A DNA stretch of 64,000 bases from Bilabrum cf. latius (Eukaryota). Positions within the stretch are counted from its first letter, which is position 1; each line of letters starts with the position of its first letter. Shown piece after piece: positions 1-64,000 of this stretch. The position numbers and the translations under genes are program-made. The DNA lies in NCBI GenBank assembly GCA_965178125.1, contig OZ237760.1, positions 434,001 through 498,000 of the forward strand. The letters are read 5' to 3'. The notes under the pieces were generated by a model. That model made no database searches, was not told the origin of the DNA, and worked only from the letters and a program-made list of their open reading frames with translations.

Positions 1-2771
1 CTCAAGGCCCGCCTGCCGACGTCTATGCACCGGGTGTACTGCTTGAGCTCCCAATGAAGCAGGCACTCGTTGACTGCCAGTTCCTGGCCAGAGATGCCCT
101 GTTCCACAGCGCCCTGTATGCGAAGAAGGGCACTCTGAGGGGATCCTTCCTGCAGCCTGTCCTGTGCCTTGTCCAATAGCTGGCCGAGCGGGCTGCCTTG
201 TGGGCCAGCGGCAGCTTTAAAGTCAGAGCTACTATCTGCTGCTGCACTACCGGACTTGCCAAATGGAGAGCTCCGCGGCTTCTCCCCAAACACACTAGCG
301 GTCTTTTTTGACTTTTTTCTGAAAACTCGCTTCGGCTTCGGCTTGCCCTAAGCAGAGCCATTAGGAGCATCAGGAAATGGAGTGCCAACACCCGTCGACT
401 GCCCGCCAGAGCTGCCCCAAACGTCCTGCGCTGCTGAGCTCCCTGATGCATCCCCAAAGCCAGCTGCCATAGGCGCCCCAAACGCATCCACACCTCCACC
501 ACTGACACTGCCAGTCCCCGCACCCACACCCGCACCCGTCGACGGCTGCCCGCCCGAGCTGCCCCAAACGTCCTGCGCTGCCGAGCTGCCTGATGCATCC
601 CCAAAGCCAGCTGCCATAGGCGCCCCAAACGCATCCACACCTCCACCACTGACACTGCCAGTCCCCGCGCCCGTCGACGGCTGCCCGCCCGAGCTGCCCC
701 AAACGTTCTGCGCTGCCGAGCTGCCTGACGCATCCCCAAAGCCAGCTGCCATAGGCGCCCCAAACGCATCCACACCTCCACCACTGACACTGCCAGTCCC
801 CGCACCCACACCCGCACCCGTCGACTGCTGCCCGCCCGAGCTGCCCCAAACGTCCTGCGCTGCCGAGCTGCCTGACGCATCCCCAAAGCCAGCTGCCATA
901 GGCGCCCCAAACGCATCCACACCTCCACCACTGACACTGCCAGTCCCCGCGCCCGTCGACTGCCCGCCCGAGCTGCCCCAAACGTCCTGCGCTGCCGAGC
1001 TGCCTGACGCATCCCCAAAGCCAGCTGCCATAGGCGCCCCAAACGCATCCACACCTCCACCACTGACACTGCCAGTCCCCGCACCCGCACCGGCACTCAC
1101 ACCCGCACCCGTCGACGGCTGCCCGCCAGAGCTGCCCCAAACGTCCTGCGCTGCCGAGCTGCCTGACGCATCCCCGAAGCCAGCTGCCATAGACGCCCCA
1201 AACGCATCCACACCTCCACCACTGACACTGCCAGTCCCCGCGCCCGCACCCGCGCCCGTCGACTGCTGCCCGCCAGAGCTGCCCCAAACGTCCTGCGCTG
1301 CCGAGCTGCCTGACGCATCCCCGAAGCCAGCTGCCATAGACGCCCCAAACCCATCCGCACCCCCACCACTGACACTGCCAGTCCCCGCACCCGCACCCGC
1401 ACCCGTCGACTGCTGCCCGCCCGAGCTGCCCCAAACGTCCTGCGCTGCCGAGCTGCCTGACGCATCCCCAAAGCCAGCTGCCATAGGCGCCCCAAACGCA
1501 TCCACACCTCCACCACTGACACTGCCAGTCCCCGCACCCACACCCGCACCCGTCGACGGCTGCCCGCCCGAGCTGCCCCAAACGTCCTGCGCTGCCGAGC
1601 TGCCTGACGCATCCCCAAAGCCAGCTGCCATAGGCGCCCCAAACGCATCCACACCTCCACCACTGACACTGCCAGTCCCCGCACCCACACCTGCACCCGT
1701 CGACTGCTGCCCGCCCGAGCTGCCCCAAACGTCCTGCGCTGCCGAGCTGCCTGACGCATCCCCAAAGCCAGCTGCCATAGACGCCCCAAACGCATCCACA
1801 CCTCCACCACTGACACTGCCAGTCCCCGCACCCGCACCGGCACTCACACCCGCACCCGTCGACGGCTGCCCGCCCGAGCTGCCCCAAACGTCCTGCGCTG
1901 CCGAGCTGCCTGACGCATCCCCGAAGCCAGCTGCCATAGACGCCCCAAACGCATCCACACCTCCACCACTGACACTGCCAGTCCCCGCGCCCGCACCCGC
2001 GCCCGTCGACTGCTGCCCGCCCGAGCTGCCCCAAACGTCCTGCGCTGCCGAGCTGCCTGACGCATCCCCAAAGCCAGCTGCCATAGGCGCCCCAAACCCA
2101 TCCGCACCCCCACCACTGACACTGCCAGTCCCCGCGCCCGCACCCGCACCCGTCCATTGCTGCCCGCCAGAGCTGCCCCAAACGTCCTGCGCTGCCGAGC
2201 TGCCTGACGCATCCCCAAAGCCAGCTGCCATAGGCGCCCCAAACGCATCCACACCCCCACCACTGACACTGCCAGTCCCCGCACCCACACCCGCACCCGT
2301 CCATTGCTGCCCGCCCGAGCTGCCCCAAACGTCCTGCGCTGCCGAGCTGCCTGACGCATCCCCAAAGCCAGCTGCCATAGGCGCCCCAAACGCATCCGCA
2401 CCTCCACCACTGACACTGCCAGTCCCCGCACCCGCACCGGCACTCACACTCGCACCCGTCGTCGGTAATTGGGCCGAGGGGCCATGCAGGTTCTGATCCG
2501 TTTTGGTTCTAAACGCCTCGCTTGCCAGAAACCCAGAGCCAAGTGAGTCAACTTCTTGAGCGGAAGATATGACATCTGGTTGACTGTCGGCTGCTCTATG
2601 AACGGTGAACACAGCTGCTGAAGCAGTTCCTTGCTATGATACATCTCCATTCATGTGACGACCAAGTCCCAGGGTACCACTTGAGAAACTATAGCAGCTG
2701 GTGGGTACATCTACCTTCTTCATTGTCTTTCGCCGTTTGTTTCGCTTTTCTCGCTCTGCCCCAAATTGCAT
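1..2771 (-). CDS. Partial gene (3' end off-window): large low-complexity repeat region followed by a probable TPR-like helical domain
   Basis: ORF 348..2612 extends through TAG at both ends: upstream to ATG 2771 (MQFGAEREKR...; true start uncertain) and downstream past TAG 348-350 to the window edge (...LGQLLDKAQDRLQEGSPQSALLRIQGAVEQG...LAVNECLLHWELKQYTRCIDVGRRAL), with no TAA/TGA. Confidence 0.7.
392..2460 (-). repeat. Coding tandem repeat, 14 copies of a ~147-bp (about 44-53 aa) unit TGSVSGGGVDAFGAPMAAGFGDASGSSAAQDVWGSSGGQQSTGAGVGAG
   Basis: Directly visible near-identical units; the Q(D/N)VWG motif occurs 14 times; all length variants are multiples of 3. Confidence 0.95.
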
Positions 2772-3012
2772 TCCTCGCTCAATCCGCTTATCGCACAAAT
2801 AACAATGGGATTTTAGCTTAGTCCAACGTGAAGCCCTTCAACGTAATTACAATAATTCGTATATGCCAAGGTTCAAGGGCATCAAAAGCATACAGGACGT
2901 GCTTTACCTGTACTGAATTCGAACTGTGTGTTGCGACCAGATGTGACGAGTTGCGGCACTGGTTGCGACCGCGAATTCGACCAACGCTCACTCAACTATT
3001 CATTGCCATAAA

Positions 3013-6000
3013 ATGCACGCATCAGCTGCAATCCTTTTTGGGCTCAATTTATTTGGAGTTATAGGTGCATTAGATCAGTGTGGGCCGATTATTGCCAGGC
3101 TGTCTCCTGCCAACGTCCTGAACCAGCTCCTTTGTGAAGATGAGCCTTTGCTCGAGCTGCTCTCTCAAGCTACCGGGAAGTAGATTTTCATACCGCTCCA
3201 AAGGTTCCATGCGTTACGACCTCCATGTAACGAATCTATGGTAGTGAGACCCCTGCTACAAGGCTGCTCGATTTGCGAAGAGGTAGGCGGTTGGACTTCT
3301 GCTCACACTGCAACTGAAGCAGCTTAGAACTGCGTAGCGGCTCAATCAACGCCAGCTATGCACGTAATACCTGCACTTGGGCACAACTTAGACTAGGTGA
3401 GCCAGCCCCACTAGATAACGTAGTCAGTGGATGGTATTGAGACAATCAGCAGGACCGAGCAGCGGCCAGTTGCAGTTGCTCAAACTCGCTTTGTTGACCG
3501 GCTTGAGTTTGAGATCAAGGCTTCAAGTGGAAGTCGGTAGATCATTGAGACTGATAAGCTAACTCCGGACCGACGGAATTCGACGGGGCTTATTCAGCGT
3601 GCTGAGGATTCGGCGATACAGAAATATGCTCGCTCCCAAGCATCTGCTCCGAACGTGACGTAGGCAGTCCAGACTTCCAAGGCACTTACAGATCGAGGCG
3701 AGTAGGACTTTTCGTTAGATTCTAGAGGTAGCAGTGTTGCGCCTGTCCAGTTTAACGACAGCACTGATGCTGAATTGGAAGCAGAGCCTGCAATGACAGA
3801 GCCGAACCAACCGATCTCGGCCACGCCCGAGCCAGTCCACGTGCGTCTCGATGAGCAGCAGCTGCGTACCCTGAGCCAGATTCCATCCACTTGGGCTCTT
3901 TGGCTTGTCGTAGTTTGTAGCATTGCTGCGATATCAGCGCAGTCCCTGTGGTCGAAGGAGCCGCTCTTCGGTCTGCTGAAATCAGCTGGCTATACGGATG
4001 GAGCCACTGCAGGACTTAGCTCCAGAGAGGGAGATACATCGGAGAAAACTGCACATCGTATTATCGCCAAAGGTGAAACTGATCCTGCTGAGGATCCATC
4101 AATAGTCGCCCCATCGGACCGAGCATACGACTCTGACAAGCATCCTGCGCCTGGTGCCGAGCCACAGCGAGCTGCTAGTGCGCTCGTGTCAAGCAAAGAG
4201 GACGACCCAAGCTCATTGCTACTATCGAGCACATTCCAATGCGTCCAGCAGCCCCGTACAGGAGGATCCTGGATCCGGATGAAGAGGCTGCAACGTGAAT
4301 CCGGAGTGCTATCCGCCATGCTGTCCCAGCAGGCACATCGTGACCCGCGGAGGTCTCGCTCAGCTGAGAGAGCTGTCCCCCACTAGATCAAAGTCCATGA
4401 TAGCGGTCCAATCCGATCCAAGTCTGAGGATGACATTCGGAGGGGAACCGGAGCAATGCATGCTGGCTCCGATGACGGATGCGATGAGCTGCACCAAGGC
4501 GTGAATCCTCTCTTCTCCGGGAGCAGCGGCACAGGTGGCACTGACAAACGGGGGGCCACAAGCGATACGCTTGCCGGTGGCAGCAGGGCGTCAATTCGGG
4601 CGAGGCTGCTCCGCGAGGGCAAGGCAGTCGACGCCAGGAAACTGGGAGCCGCTGGATCGGCAGGTGCTGCTGGCGCAGGCAGCACCTCGCCGGCAAAGCA
4701 GCGCACCATGACGCAGGCACAGAAGAGGGCCCAGCTACTGGCCACCAGCGCTGCAGCTGCTGTTCACAAGCTGCACATCCGGGGCCCCGGTGAAGCGGTG
4801 GGTACCAAGCGATTCACCAAATCATCCAGGAGACCGATCGGCCACGGGCAGCGCCTGCCCAGCGTGCAGGAGCGCGAGAGGAGGACGAGCGAGAGCGTGC
4901 TGATGAACACAGAGGACGAGCCCATGGCAGATGTTGATCCCAGGCTGAAGCATCTTGCCTTTGCGGCGGGCCACTGCGACCCGAGGGCTCGGCTTGGCCC
5001 TGCCTCTCACTCGCCGCCGCCACCTCCTCCGCCACCGAAGCCCCAGTCGCCCGGTGACTCGCTGCTCACGGTCAACGCCATGTTCAGCCACTCCATGCAA
5101 GACCAGATGCGGCGACCTGGTGCAAGTGCCACGAGCGGCATGGAAGCTTGGCCAAGCAGCACCCAGGGTGGTGGGTCCGGTCCTGGTGCAGGCATGTTTG
5201 CCTGCACCAATCCGGCGCAACGGCTCGGATCGGCTCCAACTCCGGGTCGCCAAATGCACCAGACCGAGTCTTACTAGACGAAGGAGGATGCATAGCACTA
5301 CCAGTACCCTAGTCAGCCGCAGTAGTACGCTGTGCAGCACCAACCAGCGCGACCGGGTCGACCAGCGCGACCGGGTCGACCGGGCCGGCCAGGCCGGCCA
5401 CCTGTTGGCGCGGGCCCAGTGCAGGCAAGGCCCGGAAGACCCATGCAGGCCCCGCCGGGCACACGGCCAGCGCGTCCTGGGCGCCCCGGTTCGCAGCCCC
5501 GAGCTGGCCCAGGACCCGCAGCCAGGCCTGGCCCTGCTGGCGCCAGACCCAGGCCCAGGCCTTCACCGAGCGCCGCAGCCGCCATCCGACCCAGACCAGG
5601 AGGACCCAGGCCTCGACCACGACCGAGGCCTCGGCCGGCAGGCATAGCACGCCCTCGCCCCGGTATGGTCAGCGCCAAGAAGCCCAAGAAGAAGCGGCCT
5701 GGCGAGGTCAAGCGCAGGGTGAGGTGGGAGCCTGTCAGGAGGCAGAGCTCTGCCACCCCGAAGGCAGCGAGGGTGGAGAGCGGCAGCGATGCCGAGCACG
5801 GGGCGTTCTGGCACAACCTTCCGCCTGCACCGGAGCTTGCTGACGGCAAGGCTGCGGCTGATGGTACGGAAAGAGGCAACTAGGGCGATCAGGCATCCGC
5901 CAAGAAGCCCGATTTTGTGTCAAAGGCGCCACCTGCCATGGCCTCGCCAGGCCCCAAGTCCCAGGCAAGCACGCCAGAGAAGGTGCTCGGCGAGCTCGCA

Positions 6001-7464
6001 GACTTGAGCTCGTTCAGAAAGCTATTCGTCAAGACGACCAAGCCCAGGGGTAAGAAGGGCCAGGCATCGGGGGCCAGCAGAGGCTCCAAGTCCAGCAAGG
6101 CGGCCGCCGACTCAGCGATAGATGCAACGGGCAACGAGAGCGACGGTTCAGAGGACTCCAGTGGCAAGTCCAAGAAGAGCAAGAAGGTGCAGCTGCTTGC
6201 CTACCAGCGTGCCATGAACTGCGGCATCGCATTCGCGAAGCTCAAGGCACCGTTGCAGACAGTCTTGCAGGCAGTACGACTGCTGACTCCCAAGCGATCC
6301 ACACTCGGTGCTGAGCCTACAACAGCCGGTGAAACAAGTCCCAAGGGATCGTCATCACCCCCTCACAGACCAGCGTCGAGCGGCGCCGGCCAGTCGCTGA
6401 CCCCAAGATCCGACGGAGCTGCGCTTGTCGAGGGCGGCTCGGCCGTGGCTGCTGTCGCGCCTATTCCCGAACAGGATTGCGTACTGTGCCCCGAGGCGCT
6501 CCTTCTGCTGCAGGAACAGCTTGTGCCGCAGTCGGACGAGGTCGGCGTGATCCAGGGATACAAGGGAGACCCCGAGGACCTAGGCGGGGTCGAGAGGCTC
6601 TTCCGAGGCATGCTGCGGATCGGCAGCCCGGGGCCCAGGACCAGGGCGCTCGTGTTCCGGCAGGAATTGCACGGCAGGCTGGTGTCTCTTGTGGAGGATG
6701 CCGTTGCGGTGCAGAGCGCCGTGACCGCCATCAAGACATCCACGCGGCTCAGGGACTTTCTGCACGCAGCACTGCTGGTCGGTAATGCCATGAACGACAC
6801 GTCAGCCGAGGAAGTCGCGGGGTTTGCCCTCTCTAGCCTCCCCATGCTGGCCGAGACTAAGGCATACGACGGCAAGACCACCGCCCTTGACTTTGTCGTG
6901 CAGACCCTCTGCCGAAACGGGAAGAGAGACGGCGCGGCCTTTTTGTCAGACATCGATGCGGCCTGCTCCGTTGCGATGCGGGCGCCCCTGCCGCAGATGC
7001 AGGAGGATCTGACGGCAGTGACAAACAGCAAGAAGCAGTTTGACGGCGCGGTGAAGCTCCTGCTTAAGGATGCGGCTGAGGGTGCTGGGAGTGGAGGTCC
7101 GGTGGAGGGGGCGGGTGGCACCAGTGCCAGTGGCTCCAGTGCAGCAGGGGCTGCTCCTCCCGAGGCCGCGGGCGTCGTGACTGCTGCCAAAGATGCAACT
7201 TCATTCCAGAGGAGCGCTGCTAGCGCGATAGAAGCCGTGAAGGAAAGGGTGCTAACATCATAGTCGTCGTACGCGAAGATGCTGGACTACTTCGGGGAGC
7301 CGCAGTCGGCGCGCCTTGCTTCGGATGAGTTCTTCCGGCTTATCCTGCACTGCGGGCGTGCTGCCAAGGCATCCTTAGACAAGCATGATAGGGCGGTCAA
7401 GAGCTCGGAGGCCATCAAGTCCAGGATCAAGAGGACGCGCAGCAGGTCCAGAGTGGGGCTGTGA
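3013..7464 (+). CDS. Formin (FH1-FH2) with N-terminal signal-peptide-like segment and a transmembrane helix, 1483 aa
   Basis: Single frame from ATG 3013 to TGA 7462-7464 with 14 in-frame TAG and no TAA/TGA. FH2 motifs RRVRWEPV, LLAYQRAMNCGIAFAKLK, LLVGNAMND, GFALSSLPMLAETK, YFGEP...EFF; poly-Pro and RP-rich FH1; hydrophobic WALWLVVVCSIAAISA. Confidence 0.9.
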
Positions 7465-11117: not shown

Positions 11118-14100
11118 TCAATCCCTGTCGGTGACGGTAAGCTCGCTTGCCCCCCTGCCCATCATCCAAGAGGACACAGAATCCTCCAGCTCTCTATTCG
11201 AGTTGCTGCGCAGCAGCGCAATCATGGCCGCCGGGGGTGCGTCTGAATCCCCTGAATCCCCGCCACCGAACCCAGTGGATGCCGCCGCGCTGCTTGCTGC
11301 CTGCAGGCCCGCGCTGCTCGAGGCTGCCATGAAGCTGGAAGGAACAGCAGCTCCATCCACGCCGTCTTGCGAGTCTTCTGCCTACAGAGTGGCCTGTCCG
11401 CCGCCCCACTCCTGCGCCGCCAACGCTGCTCCTGCGCTGCTGGCGGGTGCCTGGTCCAGAGACATGCTTAATGCGGCAGCTGACCTCGGCCCCGGGGCCT
11501 GCCTACTACTATGCGCCCCACTCGATGTTGCAGGTGTTCTCTAGCTTCGTCTAGCTCGTCCGGCGCGCGTCTGTGGTGCCGCAGCCTTGCTCCGCATCGT
11601 GCCACCAGCTGCTGCACCTGGACTCGACGGCAATGACACGCCGGGCGCAATTGCTGGTGCACCTGGAACGGACTAGACGGCAGCCGTCGCCGGGTCTGCA
11701 CACACGCTGCTCGGTGCTACAGCAGGGCCAGGTGCCCGGATGAAGCCTCGCCTGGCTAGCGACTGCACCGCCGATGCGATCATTCCCTTGGACACTTTCG
11801 GAGCACGCATGCCAAGCGCCGCTAGAGCCGCATCTCCCGCGTCAGTCCTGCCCCTCCCGCTGGAAAATAGGCCGCATGAGTCCGCCTGAAACATGTGCAA
11901 GAGCGTGTGCAGAGGATTCGGGCCTTCCATGCTAGGCATCTCAATCGCCTTGCCCGCTGCCTCGCCGTCCACGTCCTCTGTTTCCTTCCCACAGTCGGCG
12001 AGGAGCCTAGCCCTGAACTCGGGATAGTCTGCTGGCCGCACGTCCCTATACCCCGCCCCCTCGGAGATGGCAGCTGCGATGTCACCGACCGAAATGGTCC
12101 CGCCCCTGTTGCACACGTGAAAACACGGGCACGGGAGGCCCTAGCCTGGAGCAGACGCGTCACCCAGTGCGATGCATGCGCGAGCCACGAAGTCCACCGG
12201 AGTCTGCTCCCAGCACCAACCGGGCTGCAGGCCGGTCGCGATGGCCCGACGCATCCGCACACAGGCCGCCAGGTACCTGTGAATGAAATCGCTCGGGTTA
12301 GAGTGCCCACTGCTGCTGTGGCCTCCGATAAATCCGGGGCGAACGATTGTGGCAGGAAGGCCAGTCGACGCAGCAGCCAGCACCAGACGCTCCCCAACCG
12401 CCTTGGTAGGCCCGTACCCAGACCGCTTCACGATGTCACAGAGCTGCGCGTCGGTCATCAGGTCCGTCTCCTTGCCCTTGTCACGGCTCGACCACGTGTC
12501 AACTGTCGAGACCGTGCTGACATACACGAAGGGCTTCTTGCGGGGAGACTCTGCCAGCCGGATGGCCCATTCGGTGCCACCCACGTTGGGCCCGCGCAAG
12601 TCCGAGTATGACTTAAGCCAGTGCACAACGGCACCGCAGTGCACTACACCGTCAATCCGGGAGGCCAGCGCGTCGAATGCCCCTGCCGTCATTCCGAATC
12701 GCTCTTCACCCAAGTCCCCAGGCACGGCCACGACCCGCCCTGCCCTCTCGAAGCCAAGCTGAACTCCCGCCACTCTCGCAGTCTCCTCCAGACGCTGCTG
12801 CGCCAGCACCTGTGCAGCAATAGGATGGTCTGCGCTCCGCGTTCTCTCCATCCTGGGCGGCTGCCCAGTCCTGCCCGAAGCAGCCCCGCCCTCGCTAGAC
12901 GTCGCGCCCCGTGTGCCGCTGCCACCAGAGGACCCTCGGGCCAGCATGGCGCCCTCGCCCTCGTCATCCTGAGGTGCCCGCGCGTGGTGCGAAAACTCGG
13001 AGCTCTCGCGCCTCAGCATCGGCGGACCGTCTCCCCTACCGGACGACGGCCCAGCCCCGGCCCCGTAGCTTGGTTCCCCACCGTCCTGCACCTTGATCTC
13101 CTCCTCCTTTCCACCGGTCGAGCCCGCCCTCGGTCTTGCTTTGGAAGGCCCTCCGCGCGACACCCTCACGAGGCAGTGGACGGTCGGCTGGCTCGGGAGA
13201 TCCAGCAGCTGATCCAGCAGGTGCACGCCGAGGAAGCCGGTGGCACCCGTCAGGAACACGTGCTTTGCATTCGCCAGCTTTGGCTGAGTAGAGGACGATC
13301 CTGAAGATACCTAGTCCCTCGCAGTGCCGCGGCCGTCGGGCCCGCCACCCGCCGCCCTTGCCTTGCGGAGGTCCTCCCGAAGTGCCTCTACCTGCGGGTG
13401 CGGGCCCGTGGGGGCACCCCCGCGCAGGATGCGAGCAACATCCCGGATGGTCTGAGTCGTTTGCTCCAGGTCGCCCAACGAAGCCATGGACACGCCGGCT
13501 CGTTCCAATGACTTCGCGAACGCCTGCAGCAGTCTCTGCTTCAGGGCCGTTCTTGCGGCGCTGCTGCGCACTTGCCCCTCCCAGATGCGCTCGCTCGGCG
13601 CGACTGGATGCCCGACGAAAGAGGCGATGGCGTCACACAGCATGCGCTCGATCTCGTCCGCGGGCTCGTCCTCGCTGGATGCCGGCACGACTACCCCTGG
13701 TTCGGCCGCCCCATCGCCTGGCTGGCCACCCGTGCTGCCGCCTGCACCGGCTCCTGCACCCGACCCGCTGCCCCGCACCGCAACGGCCGCAGTATGTCTC
13801 CCCTGCAGCAGTCCATCGCAAGTGGGCCCGTACCTTCGGATGAGCCCCGCCCTGCTCTTCTTGTTGCTGGTGGTGCGCAACCCCAGCTCTGAGGTGAACT
13901 CGCAGTCGAATTCCACGAAGACAGCCGAGGGAAGCTCGTAGGGGGCCAGGCCCTTGGCTAGCCCAAACTCAGCTAGGCGTTCCCGTACCACCCGGGCCAC
14001 GTCGGCAGATCGCATCGGGCTGTCCATGGCTACAGGTGCGTCGCCATTGTCCGCTTGCTTGGACTCCTCGTGTCCTCTCCCGGCAGCCTCAGCAGCCCTC

Positions 14101-17100
14101 GCCATGGACTTAACAATGTCCAAGTCCGGCACCACCACCGCGACAAGGCTGGCAGCAGCGTCACCTGCGTGAACGTACACCTCGTGCACGAGATCGCACT
14201 CCTGCAGCACCATTTCCACCTTTTCGGGTGACACAAACTCACCGTTGGAGAGCTTCTTCACGAACTTTCGACGACCAATCAGCTTAATCCTCCCGTCCGG
14301 CAGCAGCTCGCAGAGGTCCCCTGTCCTGAAGTAGCCCTCTTCGTCAAAGGCCTTGTCGGTGGCGGCGTCATTCCTGAAGTAGCCCTCCACCATCGTACTG
14401 GTCTTCACGAGAACCTCCCCCCGAGGGTTCTGCCCCTTGGGTATCCCTGCGGCCTTGTACCCCAGCTCGGGGACATCGATGATCTTGAGCTCCACGCCCT
14501 CGATCGGCCTGTCGTTCATGGTGATGGAGCCGGCCTCAGACGCGCCATACCCCTCGGTGATAATGGAGTCCGTCCACGTCTCGCGCATCCACGCCAGCAC
14601 TGCGGGTGGCACGGGTGCTGATCCGATCCCAACCGACCTAAGCCTACGGCCCAGACACTGGCTGAACTCCGTCTTGAGTCGCTCCTCGGCGGCCTTCTTA
14701 GCCATCTCGGCCGACTTGCCGGTGGCAGCTCCCTCGATAGACGCCGACACACCCGCGAGCATCAGCTGGCTCTTGTACTCAGCGTGCAGGCCAGAGAAGA
14801 AGGAAGGAACTACATTCAAGAACGTCGGCTCTAGGCACCGCACGTCGTCATACAGCTCTGCCCACGGCTCAGAGGAGGGCAGCCCGAGAGAAGCTCCAGA
14901 CACGATTGCCCCGGGAGCCACGGCATGCTCGGACCCATGTGACATGGGCTGGAAGCTCGAGTGGTACGCAGGGGAGGGACTCATGAAATCGTTCGTCTGC
15001 CGAATGCCCCTCTTGTACGACTCTACCACGCCTTTGGGGTTTCCCGTCGACCCGCTCGTGAATAAAATCATGCTCGCGTCCTGTATCCCGGGACCAACGC
15101 CCCACTGGAGCGATATGGCATCGGTCGTCTCCGATGCCGCATCGCTGGCTGGAGTTCTCACAACGGTAAGAAGCTTGGGTCTCGACACGGGCTGCCCATA
15201 TGCCACGGGGAACCCACCGCCTGCGTTCGAGATTCCCCCGAACACGTCTGTGTACGCGCTCGGCTTGGTGAGCCCCGTGTTCAGCTCTCGCATCTTCCCC
15301 GCGACTTCGTACGGCACAATGGTGGGGTGAGTCCCGGAGGCCTTCAGCTCTGCCTTGAGCGCCTCAATCCTGGCTTGACGAGTTGCTTCGTCCCGTGTCC
15401 TGTGCTCCTGCCATTCGTGCAGCAGGCGCGCCGACGGCAGTGGTAAACGGAGCGGGGCACTAGCACCGTCCTCGTCCCACCCTGTGCGCTGAAGCAGCAG
15501 CTTGCCAAGGCGAAGGAGCGTGGATAGGCGAAGGATCGTCGGCCCGGTAGCATCGGTGCACGCGCTGTCCCCTGCACTGGAACCGGCAGCTGCTGTAGGT
15601 GCGCCACTGTCTGCGCCCGCCCCGCTGGACGCACCGGCAATTGATCCAGAATCGCCACCTGGAATGCCGAATGTCTCGTACACCCACCCAGCATTCTACT
15701 CCTCGATTCCAATACCATCAGGCACAACCCGATTTGAGGGGACACCTAGGTCGGTGTCAACCACGACGAGAAGAGACAGCCTGGGCGCATCGGCAGCCAC
15801 ATGCTTCATCATCGGCAGCCTGGCAGCATCCACAACAGCAGCGAGCATGCCCGTCGAGTCAGCGATGTAGGACAGCTGCTACCGAAGCATGGTGTGCTGC
15901 ATGGGAACCTCCACGAACCCGCAGTGCAGTGCAGCCGCCCAGCTCATAAACCACTCGGCAGAATTTTCCCCGCAAATGCCGAGAAAAACCCGGTCGGACA
16001 TCTCCTCCCCGCGCTCCGAGCGAGGAGCGGTAATGCCTCGGCGGACCACCACAGGCGGCAGCAGAGCCTCTAGAGCAGAGGCCAGTCGCCTGGCTCCCGC
16101 CCTAAACTCACCACCTGTCATGTACTCGTACTCGCCCAGCTGCTCTCCATTGGGTCCGTGAACCGCCGCCTGCTTCCCGCTTCCGGCTGCAGCAGCGTCG
16201 GACCCATCGCGTGTATCGACAGGCAATAGCGCGCGCCTCCCAATCATGGGGTTATTCTGCCAGAAATCCAGAGCATTTGCCACATCGTCCTGAGCCGAGG
16301 CCCCGTGGAGGCACCCGCAGTAGGGCTCCAGCTCGTCCAGCACCAGGCAGGCCCACTGCGGCTCCAGCAGCTCCACACGGACAACCTCGCCAGGGGCATG
16401 GATCGGCACATCTACGTAGTGTTCCCCGACTGGCTGCACCACGGTGACTTGCTTGGACATGTGGAGCGGTCTCAGGTGCTTCACGGAGCCTCCGTGGTTG
16501 TACTAGTACACGCTCACCCTGTACTTGATGGGCTCACGGGAGAGCTCGGCGCACTCTGGCAGAGCTTCATCACAGGCGGTCGACACTAGTGCTCCCACAG
16601 GCGCTATCTGATCGATTCCGGGTCCTCCCTCCGTCCCTCTCCTCCTCCTAGGCGGCTGCCTCCTGTAGTTGACGATGCGAACCCATGCCACCGCTAGCTC
16701 GCCCCGCTCCTCCCCCTGCCGCAGCAAGCTGGCCTCGTACCATGGACCTGACGCAGAGCTCGCCGCCTCGGCCTCCGCTTTGGCTATTGCTTCAATTTTA
16801 GCTCGTTTCGCGAGGAGTTCCTCGAGATTTGGGTCGCGGTACAGCATCGCCGTGCCCTTCGAAGCAAGTGCCCGGATCAGCCGTTCGCTTGGGGCAGAGG
16901 GCTCTTTCTGCTCCCTTCCGGCCGGTTTTGTGGGCAACATGCGGATTGAAGAAAGACATTTTGCGTTCTGGCCCAGAGCGTTGGTGTCGAGCGGGGCCAG
17001 CTGGGCGGCTAGCGCACCCTCGGTGCTGTCGAACATCTCGTGGATGGAACTCTGTCGGGGCCAGTAATTCATGCGATGCCCCAGAGGAAAGAACTGAACC

Positions 17101-17777
17101 GGGGTGCCACATTTTCCTGCGGTGAGATGCTGGCGAACTCGCACGAGCACCGAAAAGGAGGTTGGCTTGAGCCCGTCATTGCGAAGCTCCCGAAGGCCAA
17201 GCACCGGCCCGGTCGCTTGCAGGCCCATTGGCGCGGTATCAACCCCATCTGCCGAAGTCTGCATCTGCATCGTTGCATGGGGCATTTCTTGCATCAGCTC
17301 TTCAACGTACGAGTGATCTGGCCCCTCGTCGGCGAGTGCTCTCTCCAGCTCCGCGTCCATTGCTTCAAGCGCCACATCAATGATCCAGCCTGGCTTGAAC
17401 TTGCTGGCGAGATGCGGCATCAGCCTAACATGAAAGTGGTCATTTTCAATCAATGCGCTTTCCATTCGCTGTGGACCTGACCAAGCACAGGTAGCAGAAT
17501 CACAGTCGTGTTCCCGAAAAGTCGATGCTTGGATCGCACGCCATTTCCCAGATCCGTCCTGTTCGCCGGGACCACTGCTGCCCCGAGAAGTCAAAATTTG
17601 CAGACCTCCCGAAATAATCATACTAAGAGCTGCGTCCCCATCTCCCACGCCTTGAAACGTGTATGGCTGCCCAGGACAGTGAGCACCAAGCTACACTTGG
17701 CGATAGCCAAGCGCAGGCAAACTCTTGGACGCAGATCCTGGAGCCCGAGCAGCTTTACCTTTTATATGAATTGACAT
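11118..17777 (-). CDS. Carboxylic acid reductase-like (NRPS-like adenylation-carrier-thioester reductase) enzyme with unassigned N-terminal region, 2219 aa
   Basis: ORFs 17691, 16503, 15879, 13311, 12141, 11673 and 11118 are in one frame joined by 9 TAG; ends TGA. A-domain motifs FTSGSTGNPKG, EGYGASEAG, YFRTGDL, KLSNGEFVSPE; R-domain motifs FLTGATGFLG, PNVGGT, KPFVYVST, GYGPTK. Confidence 0.88.
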
Positions 17778-17910
17778 TGTGACTAATGGACGCAAGTACG
17801 GACTAGCGGTGTGCCAAAATATATGCGAGAATCTGATGATTATGTCGATTTGTAGCGTGGACTTCCGAAGAGTCTGCAGGATCGGATCGGATCCGGGTGC
17901 GTAAGGTGAC

Positions 17911-20856: not shown

Positions 20857-21154
20857 GAGCGCAGGGAATGGGCAAGATTTCACTCAATCAGAATAATGCG
20901 GCAAACCTACATGCTATCCTGCGAGTAAGTGCAGCTCCGACTGAGCATTTATAATGACTAAATCGATGCAAATCGAGGACACATTCGGACGCACCCTTAA
21001 GGCTACACGACGAGATTTTAAAATAGACACCACTTCGATCTGTTGCGTGCTGTTCCAAAAATAAATTGTGATATAACACCATGAAACTATCCATTCGTGA
21101 TTGGCACCAGACTACTAGGACGACTGTTGGATACAGTCCGAATTTCAGTGCAAA

Positions 21155-32011: not shown

Positions 32012-32135
32012 ATTGCGGCCAAGATGAAAATTGAGACGAGCGCGTCCAGAAATCGGCCCGGGTTCCGGTTTGGATCGATGCAACCGACAATGAGATAGTT
32101 TTCCCCCGGTAGTTGCTGGGGATGCCTTCAGTAGT

Positions 32136-44820: not shown

Positions 44821-45231
44821 CTTCTGGAGCAACACCTGGGTGACTGGGTTTTCCCCGGGAAGCCCGGCGATTTGGCCTATTGAACTGGCTATTGTCCCTG
44901 TTGGGACTGAGTAAAGCCGAGAATACACGCTCCATAGATATCCCGATCGAATCCTTAGTGTGGTCACGCCTTCATGTAGCGTACCATTGGCATTTTACTC
45001 GATTTGTTGCAAATTACCGGACCCTACCGATTCGAATTCTTGATTTTTATCACTGAATCGAGAAAGGAACCCACAACTTTCTCAACTGGGAGGGAATCCA
45101 GGCAAAAAGGTGAACCCCAGCCGTGCGGAACCAATGACAGTTTGCGCCGGCGGCGCGGCGCCTCGGGAGACCAACAGCAATCGAGCTGCAGAAAAAGCAG
45201 CGCAGCGCACGCAGGGTGTCGCTAGTCCGGC

Positions 45232-55187: not shown

Positions 55188-55414
55188 TAGCCTATTGAAG
55201 CGCCGTGGAAGACAACAGCCAGATCTATCGAATAGAATGTATTTCATGCGCTGACATTGCACTGGTAGGCCTGGCCCTGGGAGTCCGGGAAAGCCCTCCT
55301 GGACAACGGCAATGACAGCGCGATTTCCGCGAGCTCACTCGTCACTGTGGCACCTCGACTGTTTCGATCTTCAAGTTGAATCCCTAAGTAGATCTAGGAA
55401 CCACCAGTTTCAGA

Positions 55415-57193
55415 ATGCAGGCAGAAGACGACGGCGACCGAGGCGCGTTTACGCACCAAGCGGACATGCCTTGCCCACGACCATGCATGGCAAGATTTGG
55501 ACCTTAGGGGTAGCTTGTTGTTGTATCGAGCAAAACATGTGTATTGAATCGCGGTTGCCATTCTCTTGATACAAAAATGCGACATTAGGTTTCACGCGCT
55601 GTTTCAGCTGGTGTTATTGTGCTTGAAGGAGTTTCCAGTATTATGTTGCGTGACGTGCAGAGGGGTCCATTGCAGGAACAGGGACTCACCTACGAGGCCA
55701 TGCTTGGTCACTTCGAGCAGTGTGCAGTATCTATGGATAGACAAGATATCAGGAATGCCATCCCAAAGTTTGAAGCATTATGCGCCTCGCGGGCTCGAGC
55801 ATAGCGGCAGAGGCGGGCTGCCCGTATGGCTCGTGACGGCGTGGCCACGGATCTAATTGATTCCTTAAGCAGCGAGGATGATAGCTCCAGCAAGGGATCC
55901 CAAGACTCTGCTGATGACGATCCCTTCTCCAGCTCGCAGGACAGTGATAGCAGCACATCAGGGAGTGATAGCTCGAGGGAAGGTAGCAGCGAGGATGAGT
56001 CTCAACGGCAAGAGCAGAGGTATTCAAGTGTTCGCAAAACCAGAATACCATAGCATGACGTCGCATCGGCTGCTATACGTGCTGCTCAGGGGTTGCTGTC
56101 TACAAACGTTTCCGCGTCATCGGACTGGAATGACTCTTCTGAGTTCGAAGATTCATCACATGATTCTGGAAGTGATGCTAGCGTAGGAAGCGAATTCAAG
56201 AGCAGCAAGAACTTCTCAGCTGAATCCGTCCGAGATGCATTGGTGGAACTTAGGGATTCCATGGCATTTCCAACTAGCTCATGTACGCTCCGACCCAGGA
56301 GCCATTTGTGTGTATTGGTTGTTCCTATCGCGTTAAGTTACTACGACTGCCATATCGCAAACCCGACATCTTTATTAGTTGATCTTGTTGACGCTGGATT
56401 GAGCAGTGATATGTGCAACTAGCAATTTGGTGGTTGGGAGGGCCGTGACTCGCACCCTGCTGGCAAGCTACTGGTTGATGACGTTTTGGAAGCAGCGGCG
56501 CAAGACATTGATGTTTCAACTCTGCATCAAATCTTGGCTCTTTCTGCTCAAGTTGGACAGAGAAATACGGTGCAAGTTCATAGTGGCAGTATGCAAAGTA
56601 GGGTCGTATCGTCATTTTGCAGAGATGTTTTTAAGACTAGCCCATCTTCACGACTCCAAAAACTGGTTCCACATAAGTAGCAGGGCAGAACGCGTAGCTA
56701 GAGCTTTAATGTTGAGAGAGAGGGCAGGACAATCGCATCAATTGATAGCGGAGCAACATACTCAGGCCGTAGACCTTCTGCCCGTAAACGGCTTCCCATT
56801 GATTTTGTTTCAGCTCATAGTGAGGTTGGTGACAGCCTTTGGACGTTGGATATGAAGTCATTTGCATCGCTACATTACGCGTAGTCAAGCTCTAGTATGA
56901 TTGAACGTGGCCAAATCAGTAAAGTTGCTGCAAAACTTATCCCAATGGACGAACAACCTATTGGTGGTTTACAGATGCAGTGGCAGGGGTGCTGTTCAGT
57001 TTGCGAAGAAAAGGTTCTTGGTCGAGCCATTGTGTGTCCAAAGTGTGGACATGGCGGGCACGTTGATCACTTAGAAGCCTTGTTTTTATCTCCAGATGCA
57101 AGTGAATGCCCAAGTGGCTGCGGTTGTGATTGTGCACGTGCACTTACTGCATTCAGGCAAGAGTTGAATGGTGAAATTGGTTTCGAGAACTGA
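55415..57193 (+). CDS. WDR59: WDR59/Sea3-like GATOR2 subunit, C-terminal half only, 592 aa
   Basis: One frame with 9 TAG; ends TGA. MPCPRPCMARFGP-TAG-G-TAG-LV, HPAGKLLVDDVL...DVSTL, and C-terminal CSVC...CPKCGHGGH..H...CPSGCGCDC zinc/RING domain. Confidence 0.75.
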
Positions 57194-57477: not shown

Positions 57478-58826
57478 TCAATCAAGTAAATCAAAAACTG
57501 GATGCTGTAGCAGATCTCGAGCTGCCGGTCTTTGCCGAGGATCTTGTTGCATGCACAAACAAACCAAATCAAGCAAATGCGCGCATACAATGGGTGACTA
57601 CACAACCATTGCTGGGTCAATCTCTGACAAAGTTCTCATGAAAAAACCCTCATGGACGGGAGTACACAGGCTATCGAAAGTCATCTTAGCTAGCTTGAAA
57701 CTTCCTTGCTATTTGACGAGGTCCTTAGGATATCCAACCCTAGAGCCGATGCCGAATTTAGCCTCGATATCGTACGTTGAAACTTCCTTGGAGCCAAGTA
57801 CAGACGTGTCAATCAAAGCGTTTAATTCAAGTAAACTGAACTTGTCATCTCTCTCAATTATAAGGGGGTAGTGTCGGGCAGCTATAGAGCGAATGATAAC
57901 CCCGATAGCCCACACGTCAATCTTATCACTTTGCTCGTGTGAAGCAATGAGCACTTCGGGCGGTCGAAATCCGGCTGTGCCAGCGCGCTCTGCTTTTGCA
58001 GATGGCAACGAGCTGGCTGGAATTGGCGACAATATTCTGCAACCTACATCACTTCTCCCCGGAACACTTAATGCGCCTGCATGCAGGATTTTCTTTGGTG
58101 CAGGTGCTCTTGACTTTTTCACTGAGCAAACTTCTCGGAACTACTTGGATCCAACTTCAATTGACGGCTACGCCAACCCGTAGTCGATTAATACACCACT
58201 TCTTCCGTCACAATCGTACAAGAAGTTTGCCGGCTTGACATCCCTGTGCACTATACCCGCGGATTGCACCAGCGCGACCTGCTCAAGCAGCTGCCTAGCA
58301 ATCTGTACGAGTTCAAATAGTCCGGCATCTTCAAGAAGATACTGCGGGGCACAAGTATCCAAACAATATTTGATTCTCTAAGCATGAATATATATGCCCG
58401 CGAGGAGTATTGCAGGTTGGTCAGTGTCTCACCCGGATGGAAGCTGTGGCTCTAAGCTGGGAGATGAATATATGACTGTGTGGCACAGTGGCCGCAAATC
58501 CACAAGATAGACACTCTGACCCCACCCTGCGAGGCAGTGGTGTGATGTGACTGCTCGTACGAATACAACATGTTAAATGCGTTTTTGACCTATTCTGGCT
58601 TTGCCAGCGTGATCTCTCACACTTGCTCAAGCTAGCGCAAGCAATTGGTTTCTCGATGCACCCTGGCCAGTTTATTATCGTCGTTTATGAACTTGACAGC
58701 TAGGTCTGGCGCTTCTCGGGTCGATTTAAACTAAGCGGACTACACCGAGGCGAATGAACCTGAACCGAGCGGCTCTCCTGCTACGATTCCAAGCTTATCT
58801 AGCGGAAACTAAGCAGCAGCGTCCAT
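57478..58826 (-). CDS. CDC7: CDC7-like Ser/Thr kinase
   Basis: LGSGSFASV, LAVK, IVHRDVKPANFLY, LIDYGLA-TAG, insert, RAGTAGFRPPEVL, IDVWAIGVI, DPRQRP...LQHPVF. Two probable introns in 58378-58620; 8 TAG; ends TGA. Confidence 0.85.
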
Positions 58827-59017
58827 ACCTATGGAGTTTAGGTTTGTCGACGAACGCTTGCCTCAAATACGAATGAACACGTGCAGGAGGTGCGTCCGAA
58901 TTTTGAACTGCACATGCGATGTCAACACCGGAACAACCACATGGTTCGCCGATTGGGTACAGAATTTTGGATCGCAGGCTTGGATGCGGTAGTAAAATCT
59001 GCCGCTGCCTTTTAAAA

Positions 59018-59656: not shown

Positions 59657-62089
59657 TCATGCGTACTGCTGGGCCGTCTACAGCGTGCTAAGGTCGCCAT
59701 ACTCGGCCATCACTGTTCGATCCGCGAAGGACCGGCCCCCGAGAGCATCGGCTGCTGCCCCTGCCTGCGTCCCATCCGCGTACTGAAGCACCACAAGGCC
59801 CTTGAGGGGGCCCCCGCGCGGAACCAGGACTTGCAGCAATGTCCCATGCTTCTGCGCTTCCTACTGGATATCGAGCCGAATGTCTGCCACGACGGCGGGA
59901 TCTGCGAGTTCCCCATCTGTGACCATGTTGCTGAGTGTGAGCACTGGGGTGGCTGCGGGGAGGTGAAACCAAGGCGGAAACAAAAGAGAGGGAAAGAATA
60001 GTCCATCTATGGGGCTAAAGGGGAAGCAACGATAGAAGAACAAGGGGTGCACTGGGCAAGGCAGCAATTCCCGCTGCTCAGGCTGCCTGCCTGCCTGCCT
60101 ACCCAACAGAGACCTCTACACTGCTGTGCCCAGCATTCACTGCATTGCAGCGATACTTGGAGTACTGGACCCCAACAGACACATTCTAGCACTCAAAGTA
60201 TGTATACTCACGCGGTTTCGTTGGCTTGCCCGCACCGCCTGCAGAGGCAGGTGCGGGGGCCGCTGCTGGCACTGCCGGTGCCTGTGGAGGTGCCTGCGGG
60301 TACTACGGGGCTGGGGGTGCCTGTGGCGGGGCGGCGTGCTGCTGCGGGTACCCTCCTCCCGCGGCCTGGGGGTACCCGCCCTGCGCCTACGGGGGGGGAT
60401 ACGCCCCTCCTGCCACGGGGGGTTGCCCGGGGGCTGGCTGCTGCGGGTAGCCCCCCTGCTGGGGGTACCCTTGGGGTTGCTGCTGGGGGGGGTATCCTCC
60501 GGGGGAACCACCGTACGCGCCGCCTGCCGCCTGGGGATAGCCCCCCGCCGCCGGCGCCTGCACCTGAGGTGCGCCGTACTGGGACGGGTATCCCGCGGGC
60601 TGCGTGGGGTATCCCCCAGCAGCAGCAGCCGCACCTGGAGGGGCCTGCATCCCACCGTATGGCTGCTGCTGAGGATACCCTCCGCCTGCACCACCGTGCG
60701 ATGCACCTCCCGCGTACATGCCACCGTGCGCCGCCGGAGCCCCTCCTCCGTACCCCCCGCCTGCACCACCGTGCGATGCAACCCCTCCTCCGGACCCCCT
60801 TGGGTTGGCCCTCCTCACGGTCAGCTGCTTGTCTCCCAGCGGCATGCCGTTCAGAGCCCCCATCGCCTGGTCCACATTGACGCCCTCGTCCCAGGCACAG
60901 AAAGCAAATCCCTTGCACGACTGCGTGTGCGGGTCCCTGACCACGTTGAGGGCGGCCAGCGGCCCCTGCGACGACAGCAGCTGCCTTACCTGATCGTCTT
61001 TGAGGTGGTGCGGGAGGCCCCCAATGAATATCTTGCGGGGGCCGTCCGGCACCTGGGTCTGCACCAGGCCGAGAGCTGCCGTGTTCAGCTTGATCTCGCG
61101 GCCGGGGATCGGCGGGAACTGCGCTGGATCGTAGTCCTTGGGCCTGTTGACCCTCACAGCCTTGCCGTTGATGGCCAGACCGTCCAGCGCCAGGCAGGCG
61201 GTAGCAAGCTCGACCGACCTGAACGTGACGAACGCAAATGGCTTATCTGCGGCGCAGAATACCTCCATCACCGCGCCCCCGGGCACTGGCTGGTACGCCT
61301 TGGTCACAGCCGCCTCAATGGCCGACTGGATGGCGTCCTGCCCCGTGCCAGGGGGCAGGTTGCCCACGTACAGCCGACGCGCGGGCCGGGTCCGGGTTGC
61401 CTCCGGGTCCTCTGCCGCCTGCTGAGCCGCCTGTTCCTGCGCCGCTGCCTGCGGTGTCACCCTCGCCATGAGTCCGGCCCTGGCCAGGGCAGCGGCGAGG
61501 TCTGCCTTGTTGAGTGAGCCGGCGGCGGCAGGGGCAGTGGCTGGGGCTGCCGAGGAGGGGGCCGTGCCGTACCCTCCTCCGGCAGGCGCTCCCGCTCCAG
61601 CGCCACCCGCTTGTTCCTATGCATCCGCTTCGGGTCCAAACCTGCGTTTTCGCCTGCGTTTCGTGGTACCGTCGCCAGCCACAGCAGCGCCGGCTACCTG
61701 CCCGGGAGCGCCGCCAGGCACTCCGTTACCCGGGGCCCCTGGAAAACCTCCTGATTGGGGAGGCGCTGCAAATTGCTGCTACTGTGGATACCCTTGCGGC
61801 ATTCCAGGGGCCGTGGCCGACGCTGCTGGGGGCGCGGTTGCTGGAGAAGATTGGGGGGCAGAGCTAGCGCCGGCTGGAGCGCCACCTCCGCCTTGCATGG
61901 TCATCCAGGCGGGCAATGTGGCACCTGCGGAATTCAAATGTACGTGTGCTCCGAGATTTGGCTGCGTTTGATGTCATCTTCGCAGCGCAATCGTATCAGT
62001 ATCTTCCTATGAGATCCCTGACACGATTGCGAGCGAATACGTTCATACCAATGAGATATCTTACCACGTCCGCGACCTCTACCAGCCAT
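59657..62089 (-). CDS. U2AF2: Splicing factor U2AF large subunit (RRM1-RRM2-UHM)
   Basis: Exons 62089-62065, 61924-60236, 59952-59657. [80 protein letters not shown]. Six TAG; ends TGA. Confidence 0.92.
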
Positions 62090-62272: not shown

Positions 62273-63334
62273 ATGCGATTCATTTGCTCGTATAAGCATT
62301 CTGTTGCTTCGGTGGTATTCTGTGAGGCGCACTTGACGATGACGCCATTGTTGGCGATTATTGCAGTTGCTCGGTCCTGGCTGATGCATCGATTCGCCAA
62401 TTCGTGACTTTGCACCGCAGCGGCCGCGGTTTCTATGGAACGAATAGCAAAGACAGTAACTCTTCGAATGTCTGCGGACAGATTGCAGATCTTCGCCGAC
62501 AACAACGAGTGCAAAGCCTACGCAGAATTGAAAGTTGCAAGTGTATTCGACGATTGGCGGGTAGAAAGCCGGGCTGATAACGTAATTGGCCTCGGTATTC
62601 CATCTAAAGCACTTGCAAGCGCCTGTAAATCAAGCTAGGATGCCTTCAAGACGACATTTAGGCTGACGAAGCGCGGCGGAGCCCCGTTCCTGTCATTTCA
62701 AATGAGCAACGAGGACGAAACTCGCGTCTACACCGCTGATCTCCCGGTAGTGATTCTCGTTGGGAGCGCTGCTTAGGCATTAGAAGAACCGAGCGTTCCG
62801 TCCGTGACTCTTCAGATGCAAGCCCCGAGTCCACGTGCCGCCCAAGCCGTGCTCGAGAGGATGAAGGCCCTCCGTGCCAAGCGGGTGCAAGTGGCTGCTG
62901 CCACCGCTGGAGTCGTGTCCTTCAGCGTCAGGAGCGACCTAGTCGCGGTCCAGTCGTTTTTCTAGGACCTCGAGGAGGCAAGGGCGGGCTCAGGGGCCGG
63001 TTCGGCAGGAGGGGGCCACCTCACCGTGGAGGGCACCGCAGACCTGGGTGCCCTCTTGCTCGTGGCGGCGTCGGCGGCTGCAGCCCCGAAAGTGTCCGCG
63101 CACGTGCTGACAGTCTCTGCACCATCTACGCTTGGATGGCTCTGCGGCCTTGAGGGCGGCATGGGGTCTGCGGTCTTTTTGCTAGCTTTGGACGACGTTC
63201 GAGTGCAGAGGGTGAGTGCCGGGCCAGGGGGCGATGGCGAGGGCGATGGCGAGGGCCAGGAGGCGCAGGACGGCGGCGCGGGGTCGGAACTAGGGGCTGA
63301 GGCAGTGAAAGGTATGAGCGGCAAGGAGACGTGA
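62273..63334 (+). CDS. HUS1: Checkpoint clamp (9-1-1) subunit HUS1
   Basis: Exons 62273-62321 and 62421-63334. MRF..., RIAKTVTLRM, ALASACKSS-TAG-DA, RLTKR...PFL, DLPV, EP, VLERMK, SFF-TAG-DL. TAG at 62636, 62774, 62963; ends TGA. Confidence 0.85.
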
Positions 63335-63538
63335 GGCTGGCGCGTTGGCCCGCTCTGTCGCCGTATCGAGCCACGCCTGGCCTGTAAAGAGAGCTAGGTG
63401 AGATTGTTAGACCACCAGTTGGGCTTGTTGGACAAGCATGGGGTCCAGCCGCCCCGGTGGGGGAGATCTAGAATCCAGATCAGATCTGATCTGATCGCAC
63501 ATGCCTATGTGCTTCTCGTTGGCAACAATTAGAAGCAT

Positions 63539-64000
63539 TCATGTCTTGTCTTTGCCGCTGAGTCGTCGTCTCGAGGAGGACCTAGATCGAGAACCGGCAA
63601 TGCCCTTGCCTTTGGACGGCGGCTTGGCCCCTGGGCCTAGTGGGCTGGACGGTGGCTTGGCACCTGCATTCCGTGGGCTGGACGGCGGCTTAGCCCCTGC
63701 ACTCCGTGGGCTGGATGGCGGCTTTGCCCCTGGGCCTCGTGGGCTGGGCGGCGGCTTGGCCCCTGCACTCCGTGGGCTGGACGGCGGCTTTGCCCCTGGG
63801 CCTCGTGGGCTGGGCGGCGGCTTTGCCCCTGCACTCCGTGGGCTGGACGGCGGCTTGGCCCCTGCACTCCGTGGGCTGGACGGCGGCTTGGCCCCTGCAC
63901 TCCGTGGGCTGGACGGCGGCTTGGCCCCTGCACTCCGTGGGCTGGACGGCGGCTTGGCCCCTGCACTCCGTGGGCTGGACGGCGGCTTGGCCCCTGCACT
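63539..64000 (-). CDS. 3' end of a gene with basic Ser-Pro-Arg repeats (partial)
   Basis: Frame starting at 64000 reads (SAGAKPPSSPR)n...GSRSRSSSRRRLSGKDKT-TGA; several repeat variants are synonymous in this frame. Confidence 0.65.
   Translation of the reverse strand, partial: SAGAKPPSSPRSAGAKPPSSPRSAGAKPPSSPRSAGAKPPSSPRSAGAKPPSSPRSAGAKPPPSPRGPGAKPPSSPRSAGAKPPPSPRGPGAKPPSSPRSAGAKPPSSPRNAGAKPPSSPLGPGAKPPSKGKGIAGSRSRSSSRRRLSGKDKT
63613..64000 (-). repeat. 33-bp coding tandem repeat, about 12 copies in window
   Basis: Plus-strand unit CCGTGGGCTGGACGGCGGCTTGGCCCCTGCACT, continuing off the window edge. Confidence 0.95.

Follow-up and report, generated by a model that had tools for sequence, protein, structure and literature searches.

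Probable reassignment of UAG to glutamine in the nuclear code of a GC-rich, intron-poor eukaryote: evidence from a 64-kb genomic window

The DNA analyzed here is a stretch of 64,000 nucleotides (nt) deposited under Bilabrum cf. latius (GCA_965178125.1, contig OZ237760.1, positions 434,001 to 498,000), hereafter called the window, with positions counted from its first letter. Our analyses make it very probable that the window belongs to the nuclear genome of a eukaryote with high GC content and few introns, in which the cytoplasmic code reads UAG as glutamine, with UGA as the main and UAA as a minor terminator. That TAG is a sense codon is supported by the structure of the open reading frames (ORFs), by homology that continues across TAGs, by the retention of TAGs in spliced contigs and by a metagenomic orthologue with the same TAG-only pattern. 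The window has about 60% GC, its genes are tightly packed on both strands, and its introns are scarce and short (94–143 nt, GT..AG). We would probably be dealing with a new lineage of a known code type.

Stop-to-stop ORFs were delimited by TAA and TGA and thus contain neither of the two by definition. In 21 such ORFs with a total of 18,283 codons, we counted 118 in-frame TAGs, 108 of them downstream of the first ATG. This corresponds to a density of 6.5 TAGs per 1000 codons, or to about 13.5% of the CAG+CAA+TAG family in the window ORFs. The share of TAG in the glutamine family was only weakly correlated with the GC content at third codon positions (GC3; Spearman −0.37, p=0.095). At least one TAG occurs in 20 of the 21 ORFs, with the cyclophilin ORF as sole exception, and all four bases are found directly after TAG. 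When only TAA and TGA count as stops, the longest ORFs measure 6891, 6660 and 4518 nt, versus 2664 nt under the standard code. Read-through of TGA results in a longest ORF of 2688 nt, and read-through of TAA leaves it at 2664 nt, the same as under the standard code. In this 64-kb sample there is thus almost no ORF gain when either TAA or TGA is read through, in agreement with UAA and UGA still being terminators. The two longest frames, 6,891 nt at 11118-18008 and 6,660 nt at 25580-32239, are broken only by TAG. In the two alternative frames of these genes, by comparison, stops are distributed as 123 TAA, 307 TAG and 623 TGA. Since TAG accounts for 29% of these 1,053 stops, 118 interruptions by TAG only are improbable, with a chance of roughly 1e-63. 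An earlier sequence-only reading had described about 110 TAGs in about 20 genes, 14–15 of them in single genes, uninterrupted runs of up to 6.6 kb and a tandem TAG-TAG at 33138-33143. The recount agrees with this description: the formin ORF contains 14 and the EF-hand/RCC1 (EF-RCC1) ORF 15 TAGs, the tandem pair lies in the frame of ORF 32094-33827, and all coordinates cited in that reading, including 27839-27841 in RCC1, are TAGs in the frame of a long ORF.

Over the 18,283 codons we found no frameshift, and homology continues across the TAGs. TAGs are flanked on either side by Pfam or PDB matches in FH2, AMP-binding/NAD_binding_4, RCC1, ELO, exportin-5, CDC7, U2AF65, HUS1 and UBE2H-like proteins. 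Long ORFs with TAG as sense codon also matched the Pfam families photolyase-FAD together with START, EF-hand, discoidin, TMEM135/Tim17-like, cyclophilin, WW, zf-RING_16 and RRM. In the PDB sequence search, matches were obtained for CDC7 (1.4e-25), HUS1 (1.5e-13), U2AF65 (7e-47), UVR8/RCC1 (7e-39) and UBE2H-like E2 (3e-26). The same search yielded only marginal matches for the exportin-5 N-terminus (best E=0.021) and none for the first exon of the fatty-acid elongase (ELO) gene, and the standard-code ORF of U2AF65 found only generic RRM clusters in a protein-cluster search, with no hint as to the taxon.

To what extent TAGs persist in independent data sets could be seen from Logan contigs, not raw reads, of four runs from four studies, which were compared with the window over 25500-45499. 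Contigs of all four runs showed no differing letters and no indels, and one contig of run X3 spans 25500-39280 with 0 differences. Contigs of runs X5 and X8 skip 35153-35265 and 35375-35471 in the ELO gene, with 0 other letters. Likewise, an X5 contig skips the exportin-5 intron with a joint 37704>37848, continuing in a piece 37848-41655 with 0 other letters. All skipped stretches are GT..AG on the coding strand (in ELO, CT..AC on the plus strand), whereas X3 and X6 contigs retain them. Depth in X5 varies between genes from about 2 to 100 and is flat near 97 in X3. From the joints and the uneven depth we hence infer that X5 and X8 hold spliced transcripts. The exportin-5 intron (~37705-37847, 143 nt, GT..AG) joins both ORFs in phase. 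Removal of the two ELO introns places TAG 35318 out of frame and TAG 35510-35512 in frame, the second in-frame TAG of this gene being 34370-34372.

The listed X5 pieces include 18 in-frame TAGs, all of them unchanged. Among these are both TAGs of the spliced ELO gene, three in exportin-5 exon 2, seven in the TMEM135-like gene (contig 41762-45047, 0 other letters) and the tandem pair (contig 32116-33526, 0 other letters). Splicing or editing of the TAGs and consensus errors in place of CAG had both been named in the sequence-only reading as possible objections. In the spliced X5 and X8 contigs, the TAGs are retained and no other letter appears, and the contigs from four studies are identical to the window.

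Glutamine as the inserted residue is supported mainly by close relatives. Shorter-protein searches and a representative library yielded ORF fragments 77–97% identical to window proteins, which represent parts of the same genes, split wherever standard-code gene calling met a stop. At seven sites, a close-relative residue could be compared with a window TAG, giving Q, Q, Q, Q, K, P and M, i.e., glutamine at 4/7. The four Q sites have 8–10 of 10 identical flanking residues; they correspond to the EF-RCC1 TAGs 29591-29593 (amino acid, aa, 883), 27128-27130 (aa 1704) and 26111-26113 (aa 2043) and, in relative P0088, to the formin TAG 7261-7263 (aa 1439). Fragments of relatives end exactly on a window TAG at eight sites, which we regard as shared TAGs. 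At five fragment ends without a window TAG, and with the relatives' stop assumed to be TAG, the window codon is glutamine in 5/5 cases: CAG at 28244-28246 (minus strand), 26762-26764, 6472-6474 (plus strand) and 7303-7305 (plus strand), and CAA at 18910-18912, the end of P0093. Given a glutamine frequency of 4.1%, P=1.2e-7 for this outcome.

A more distant comparison is provided by L001, a Joint Genome Institute (JGI) metagenome contig of 3,857 nt and 55% GC, with a near-identical contig, L002, in another metagenome. Frame 2 of L001 is open from end to end over 1,285 codons, with 9 TAG and 0 TAA/TGA, and the other five frames have 2–11 TAA and 11–38 TGA each. L001 corresponds, as an orthologue, to the first 1,250 residues of the EF-RCC1 protein, with 647/1,292 aligned columns identical (58% by BLASTP over the part covered by fragment P0056). 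Two TAGs are common to L001 and the window (EF-RCC1 aa 95 and 736). L001 TAGs with 8–10 of 11 identical surrounding columns face window CAA (aa 194), CAG (aa 944) and CAG (aa 1274), that is, glutamine in 3/3 cases, and the window TAG at aa 883 faces CAA in L001. The remaining TAG sites of either sequence are located in poorly aligned stretches. TAG–CAA pairs need two nucleotide changes and thus fit drift within one synonymous family, not mutational proximity alone. A scan of metagenomes for relatives with exportin-5 gave 96 pattern matches, 0 of them confirmed.

When well-aligned comparisons in both directions, including L001, were pooled, glutamine was found in 13/17, leucine in 0/17, and among the comparisons with relatives we saw no TGG or TAY partner of TAG. 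The assignment of UAG to glutamine in the sequence-only reading, and the orthologue tally that it had proposed, thus find support in the relatives (4/7, 5/5 and, for L001, 3/3). These alignments show TAG interchanging with CAG and CAA between related genomes of the same code. We conclude that UAG encodes glutamine and that this code is common to at least three lineages, namely the window genome, an about 90% identical relative and a 58–65% identical relative present in two metagenomes.

Distant homologues are less uniform. The sequence-only reading had derived glutamine from three family comparisons, which were reproduced in part. For the HUS1 TAG 62636-62638, human HUS1 indeed has Q at site 77, but K at the two other HUS1 TAG sites. 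In CDC7, the residue after DFGLA is Q in the human protein, as claimed, but E in yeast Cdc7. The exportin-5 TAG 37594-37596 is in frame, but importin-9 has E at this position. In U2AF, TAG 61779-61781 is embedded in a GYPQxQQ repeat with the codons CAG TAG CAG CAA, and the protein contains other copies of the GYPQQ repeat. At the RCC1 TAG site, S, Q, M, M and Q are found in the five UVR8 blades, and UBE2H-type E2s have T, L and K at TAG sites. The 53 homologues of the AMP-binding/reductase protein (Cafeteria, bacterial) could be aligned only at variable positions and provided no usable residue at TAGs.

Several observations weigh against reading UAG as glutamine or limit the data it draws on. 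Taken together, the distant homologues are noisy at TAG sites, and 4/17 well-aligned comparisons with relatives are not glutamine (K, D, P and M once each). Relative P0093 has K opposite the TAG 18988-18990 (aa 632) of unk17911, an ORF without Pfam family; L001 has D at the position of the EF-RCC1 TAG at aa 956; and in a variable stretch of EF-RCC1, the TAGs at aa 1920 and 1924 are matched by P and M. The relatives' stops at the five fragment ends are assumed TAGs, seen at protein level only, and could be contig ends. Ten of the 118 TAGs lie upstream of the first ATG, so that a few of those counted would be outside the true coding sequence. None of the runs listed for the stretch is recorded as RNA, X5 and X8 included, and X5 is labelled 'RNA? 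(probably DNA)'. Finally, the stretch examined comprises 64 kb.

At the gene ends seen, TGA terminates most genes and TAA two, EF-RCC1 and exportin-5. UAG would be decoded by a tRNA-Gln with anticodon CUA. As UAA is kept as a stop, no anticodon other than CUA would read UAG and leave UAA unread, following an argument made in PMC5304391; a tRNA-Gln(CUA) is documented for some lineages that read UAA and UAG (UAR) as glutamine (PMC5304391; PMC2984419). ARAGORN found no tRNA gene in the 64-kb window, Rfam families gave 0 matches, and the window has no eRF1 gene. The eRF1 protein may have lost recognition of UAG, and once UAG was freed, TAG codons might have arisen mainly by C>T change of CAG. Translation would then continue past former UAG terminators as far as the next TGA, leaving TAGs 4–7 codons before the terminator, as seen in unk17911 (aa 986/990; 17926), the TMEM135-like ORF (aa 1016/1019; 41924) and U2AF (aa 625/631; 60099). 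These three near-terminal TAGs may hence be relics of former TAG terminators.

The same three sites could also be taken as a sign of a dual function, in which UAG is glutamine inside genes and also a stop near some 3′ ends. Context-dependent codes are found in Condylostoma and, for UAA, in Blastocrithidia. At the overall TAG density, one expects about 0.9 ORFs with a TAG this close to the terminal TGA, compared with the three observed, and fragment P0094 of a relative also ends at the near-terminal site of unk17911. The pattern is likewise expected if old UAG terminators are simply read through, a TGA or TAA is available at every gene end seen, and contig ends fit either reading equally. We regard a dual UAG as unlikely.

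Still less probable is an assignment to another residue, such as Lys, Glu, Tyr, Leu or Trp, or a heterogeneous near-cognate reading. It would account for the K, D, E, P and M found opposite some TAGs in relatives and distant homologues, yet no residue other than glutamine recurs among the 17 well-aligned comparisons, the fragment ends (5/5) and the conserved L001 sites (3/3) all give glutamine, and TGG and TAY partners were not seen. Heterogeneous reading would furthermore be costly at 118 sites including a tandem pair. That the TAGs are not translated at all, being consensus errors, parts of pseudogenes or unannotated introns, or edited back to CAG, can hardly be upheld. The Logan contigs offered no point in its favor. 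The sequence is identical in four studies, in-frame TAA/TGA and frameshifts are absent over the 18,283 codons, the TAGs are kept in spliced contigs, and the 58%-identical orthologue, present in two metagenomes, has the same pattern. Site-specific recoding (Sec/Pyl-like) or programmed read-through was rejected in view of 118 sites in 20/21 ORFs, the tandem pair and the occurrence of all four following bases.

Stop codons have turned into glutamine codons in the UAR=Gln code (NCBI table 6) of many ciliates, hexamitin diplomonads and some ulvophycean green algae. The window resembles these in the change from stop to glutamine. It differs in that UAA is glutamine there as well, whereas the window needs no in-frame TAA; table 6 was rejected here because TAA read-through leaves the longest ORF at 2,664 nt and TAA terminates two genes. 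The window shares the uncoupling of UAG from UAA with the rhizarian exLh and an uncultivated phyllopharyngean lineage, but there UAG is read as leucine, a residue that none of our well-aligned comparisons showed. With its GC content, its introns and its TGA gene ends, the window looks unlike a ciliate macronuclear genome.

Closest in kind is the fornicate Iotanema spirale, for which PMC5304391 describes UAG as glutamine with UAA and UGA as stops, UAA being the primary one, an implied CUA anticodon and a T32G change in eRF1. It also dates the first documented change in meaning of UAG only, with UAA unchanged, to 2017 (PMC5304391). The window shares with Iotanema, as described there, that only UAG is reassigned, that it is reassigned to glutamine and that UAA still terminates. 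In contrast to this anaerobic metamonad with UAA as primary stop, the window has about 60% GC and mostly TGA ends, and a stramenopile is the lead as to its origin. For the phyllopharyngean ciliates Hartmannula sinica and Trochilia petrani, genome data put UAG as putative glutamine, with UAA as the preferred stop (PMC11687900). Codon and putative amino acid are thus the same, but unlike these UAA-preferring ciliates, the window combines about 60% GC with GT..AG introns of 94–143 nt and mostly TGA ends. The phage 'code 15' of crAss-like and other phages represents the same codon-to-residue change (PMC9523058). There, it is viral late-gene recoding in bacteria, whereas the window is a eukaryotic nuclear genome with spliceosomal introns. 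Features of a table-15 type of code are present in the window: UAG occurs in conserved intact genes, faces glutamine and is found in spliced contigs, and UAA and UGA are terminators. The literature searched contained no description of UAG=Gln for a stramenopile or for another GC-rich non-ciliate lineage.

Over 25500-35499, among runs X1-X12, full or high word share was found in runs filed under four organism codes (A–D) from four studies. Six other rows had a word share of ≤0.20, comprising a run of organism D, a 'protist metagenome', an 'algae metagenome' and runs of organisms E and F. Because the same stretch appears under several organism codes, some of these labels cannot name the true source organism. 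A small heterotroph that lives in cultures of other organisms could account for the presence of the stretch in runs of at least four organism codes and in metagenomes labelled 'protist' and 'algae', which we mention as a lead only. The best named homologue of the AMP-binding/reductase protein encoded at 11118-18008 is a protein of Cafeteria roenbergensis (32% identity, 70% coverage, E=4e-138). It is also the sole close eukaryotic one found; the other matches are bacterial nonribosomal peptide synthetases (NRPS) and fungal Lys2. Cafeteria has about 70% GC, and in the part consulted, its genome paper refers to a non-standard code in the mitochondrion alone (PMC6972860).

We lean slightly toward the view that a GC-rich clade outside ciliates and metamonads, comprising at least three lineages and perhaps bicosoecid-like stramenopiles in others' cultures, independently changed UAG to glutamine, with UGA as main terminator. 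In that case, the code would be the first of its type in this region of the eukaryote tree, with genomic DNA available for tracing the changes in tRNA and eRF1. Nuclear stop-codon reassignments are rare, and the present one is an apparently independent case in a GC-rich genome in which TGA dominates. Relatives at several distances, together with the interchange of TAG, CAG and CAA, constitute a natural series for dating the change. The same series offers a route to the tRNA-Gln(CUA) and to the eRF1 substitutions that separate UAG from UAA recognition. In practical terms, standard-code gene predictions for the organism and its relatives are fragmented, and the database proteins found are such fragments ending at TAGs. 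The features of the window are collected in Table 1.

Table 1. Genes and codon features of the 64-kb window (positions from the first letter of the window)
Feature	Position	Strand	Description	Basis
Formin (FH2) ORF	2947..7464	+	1505 codons, 14 TAG, ends TGA	Pfam FH2 E=5e-37
AMP-binding + thioester-reductase (NAD_binding_4) ORF	11118..18008	-	2296 codons, 9 TAG, ends TGA	Pfam
unk17911 ORF	17911..20883	-	990 codons, 11 TAG, no Pfam family	Pfam search, codon scan
Photolyase/cryptochrome FAD-binding + START ORF	21791-25306	+	FAD-binding and C-terminal START lipid-binding domain in one ORF	Pfam
EF-hand/RCC1/discoidin-like (EF-RCC1) ORF	25580..32239	-	2219 codons, 15 TAG, ends TAA (25580-25582)	Pfam
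Window Gln codons facing L001 TAGs	31658-31660, 29408-29410, 28418-28420	-		L001 alignment
Tandem TAG-TAG	33138..33143	+	within ORF 32094-33827	codon scan
Fatty-acid elongase (ELO) gene	34127..35854	-	spliced coding sequence 505 codons, ends TGA 34127-34129	Pfam ELO E=6e-46
Exportin-5 (XPO5) gene	37207..41645	+	two exons, 8 in-frame TAG, ends TAA	Pfam Xpo1, Exportin-5
TMEM135/Tim17-like ORF	41912..44971	-	7 TAG, one 4 codons before terminal TGA	Pfam, codon scan
Cyclophilin ORF	47664-48581	-	no TAG	Pfam
RING (zf-RING_16) ORF	55388..57193	+	9 TAG, in low-GC island	Pfam
CDC7 kinase exon	57478..58428	-	TAG 58168-58170 after DYGLA motif	PDB CDC7 E=1.4e-25
U2AF65 large-subunit ORF	60078..61973	-	6 TAG	PDB U2AF65 E=7e-47
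HUS1 exon	62408..63334	+	3 TAG (62636, 62774, 62963)	Pfam Hus1 E=1e-32

Some features of individual genes may be added. The product of 11118-18008, with its adenylation and thioester-reductase domains, is similar to carboxylic-acid/aminoadipate reductases and carries an N-terminal extension of about 900 residues. In the spliced contigs, further minus-strand introns (~36534-36627 and ~36955-37050) are seen 5′ of ELO in the region 35472-37051. The latter adjoins the 5′ region of the plus-strand exportin-5 gene, and hence either the 5′ untranslated region (UTR) of ELO or another minus-strand transcript enters the exportin-5 promoter/UTR region. The cyclophilin ORF contains an odd hydrophobic insertion ahead of its Pro_isomerase domain, which may be an unspliced in-frame intron.

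Base composition is not even along the window. A low-GC island at 55500-59000 (40–52% GC versus 58–70% in the flanking regions) includes the zf-RING_16 gene together with the CDC7 exon, both with a GC3 of 0.43–0.45 versus 0.6–0.77 elsewhere and a TAG density of 15–16 per 1000 codons versus 6.5 overall.

Tandem repeats are present as well. At 399-2465, a 147-nt unit is repeated in tandem about 14 times with 91% matching, and both strands of this array are open. Its minus strand encodes a Gly/Ala/Ser-rich protein of 49-residue repeats (ORF 3-2837) that belongs to no Pfam family; the TAGs of this ORF lie outside the tandem repeats, which therefore provide no internal residue comparison. At 63613-64000, a 33-nt tandem repeat of 11.8 copies runs past the window end, with PWAGRRLGPCT-like units encoded in the open frame.

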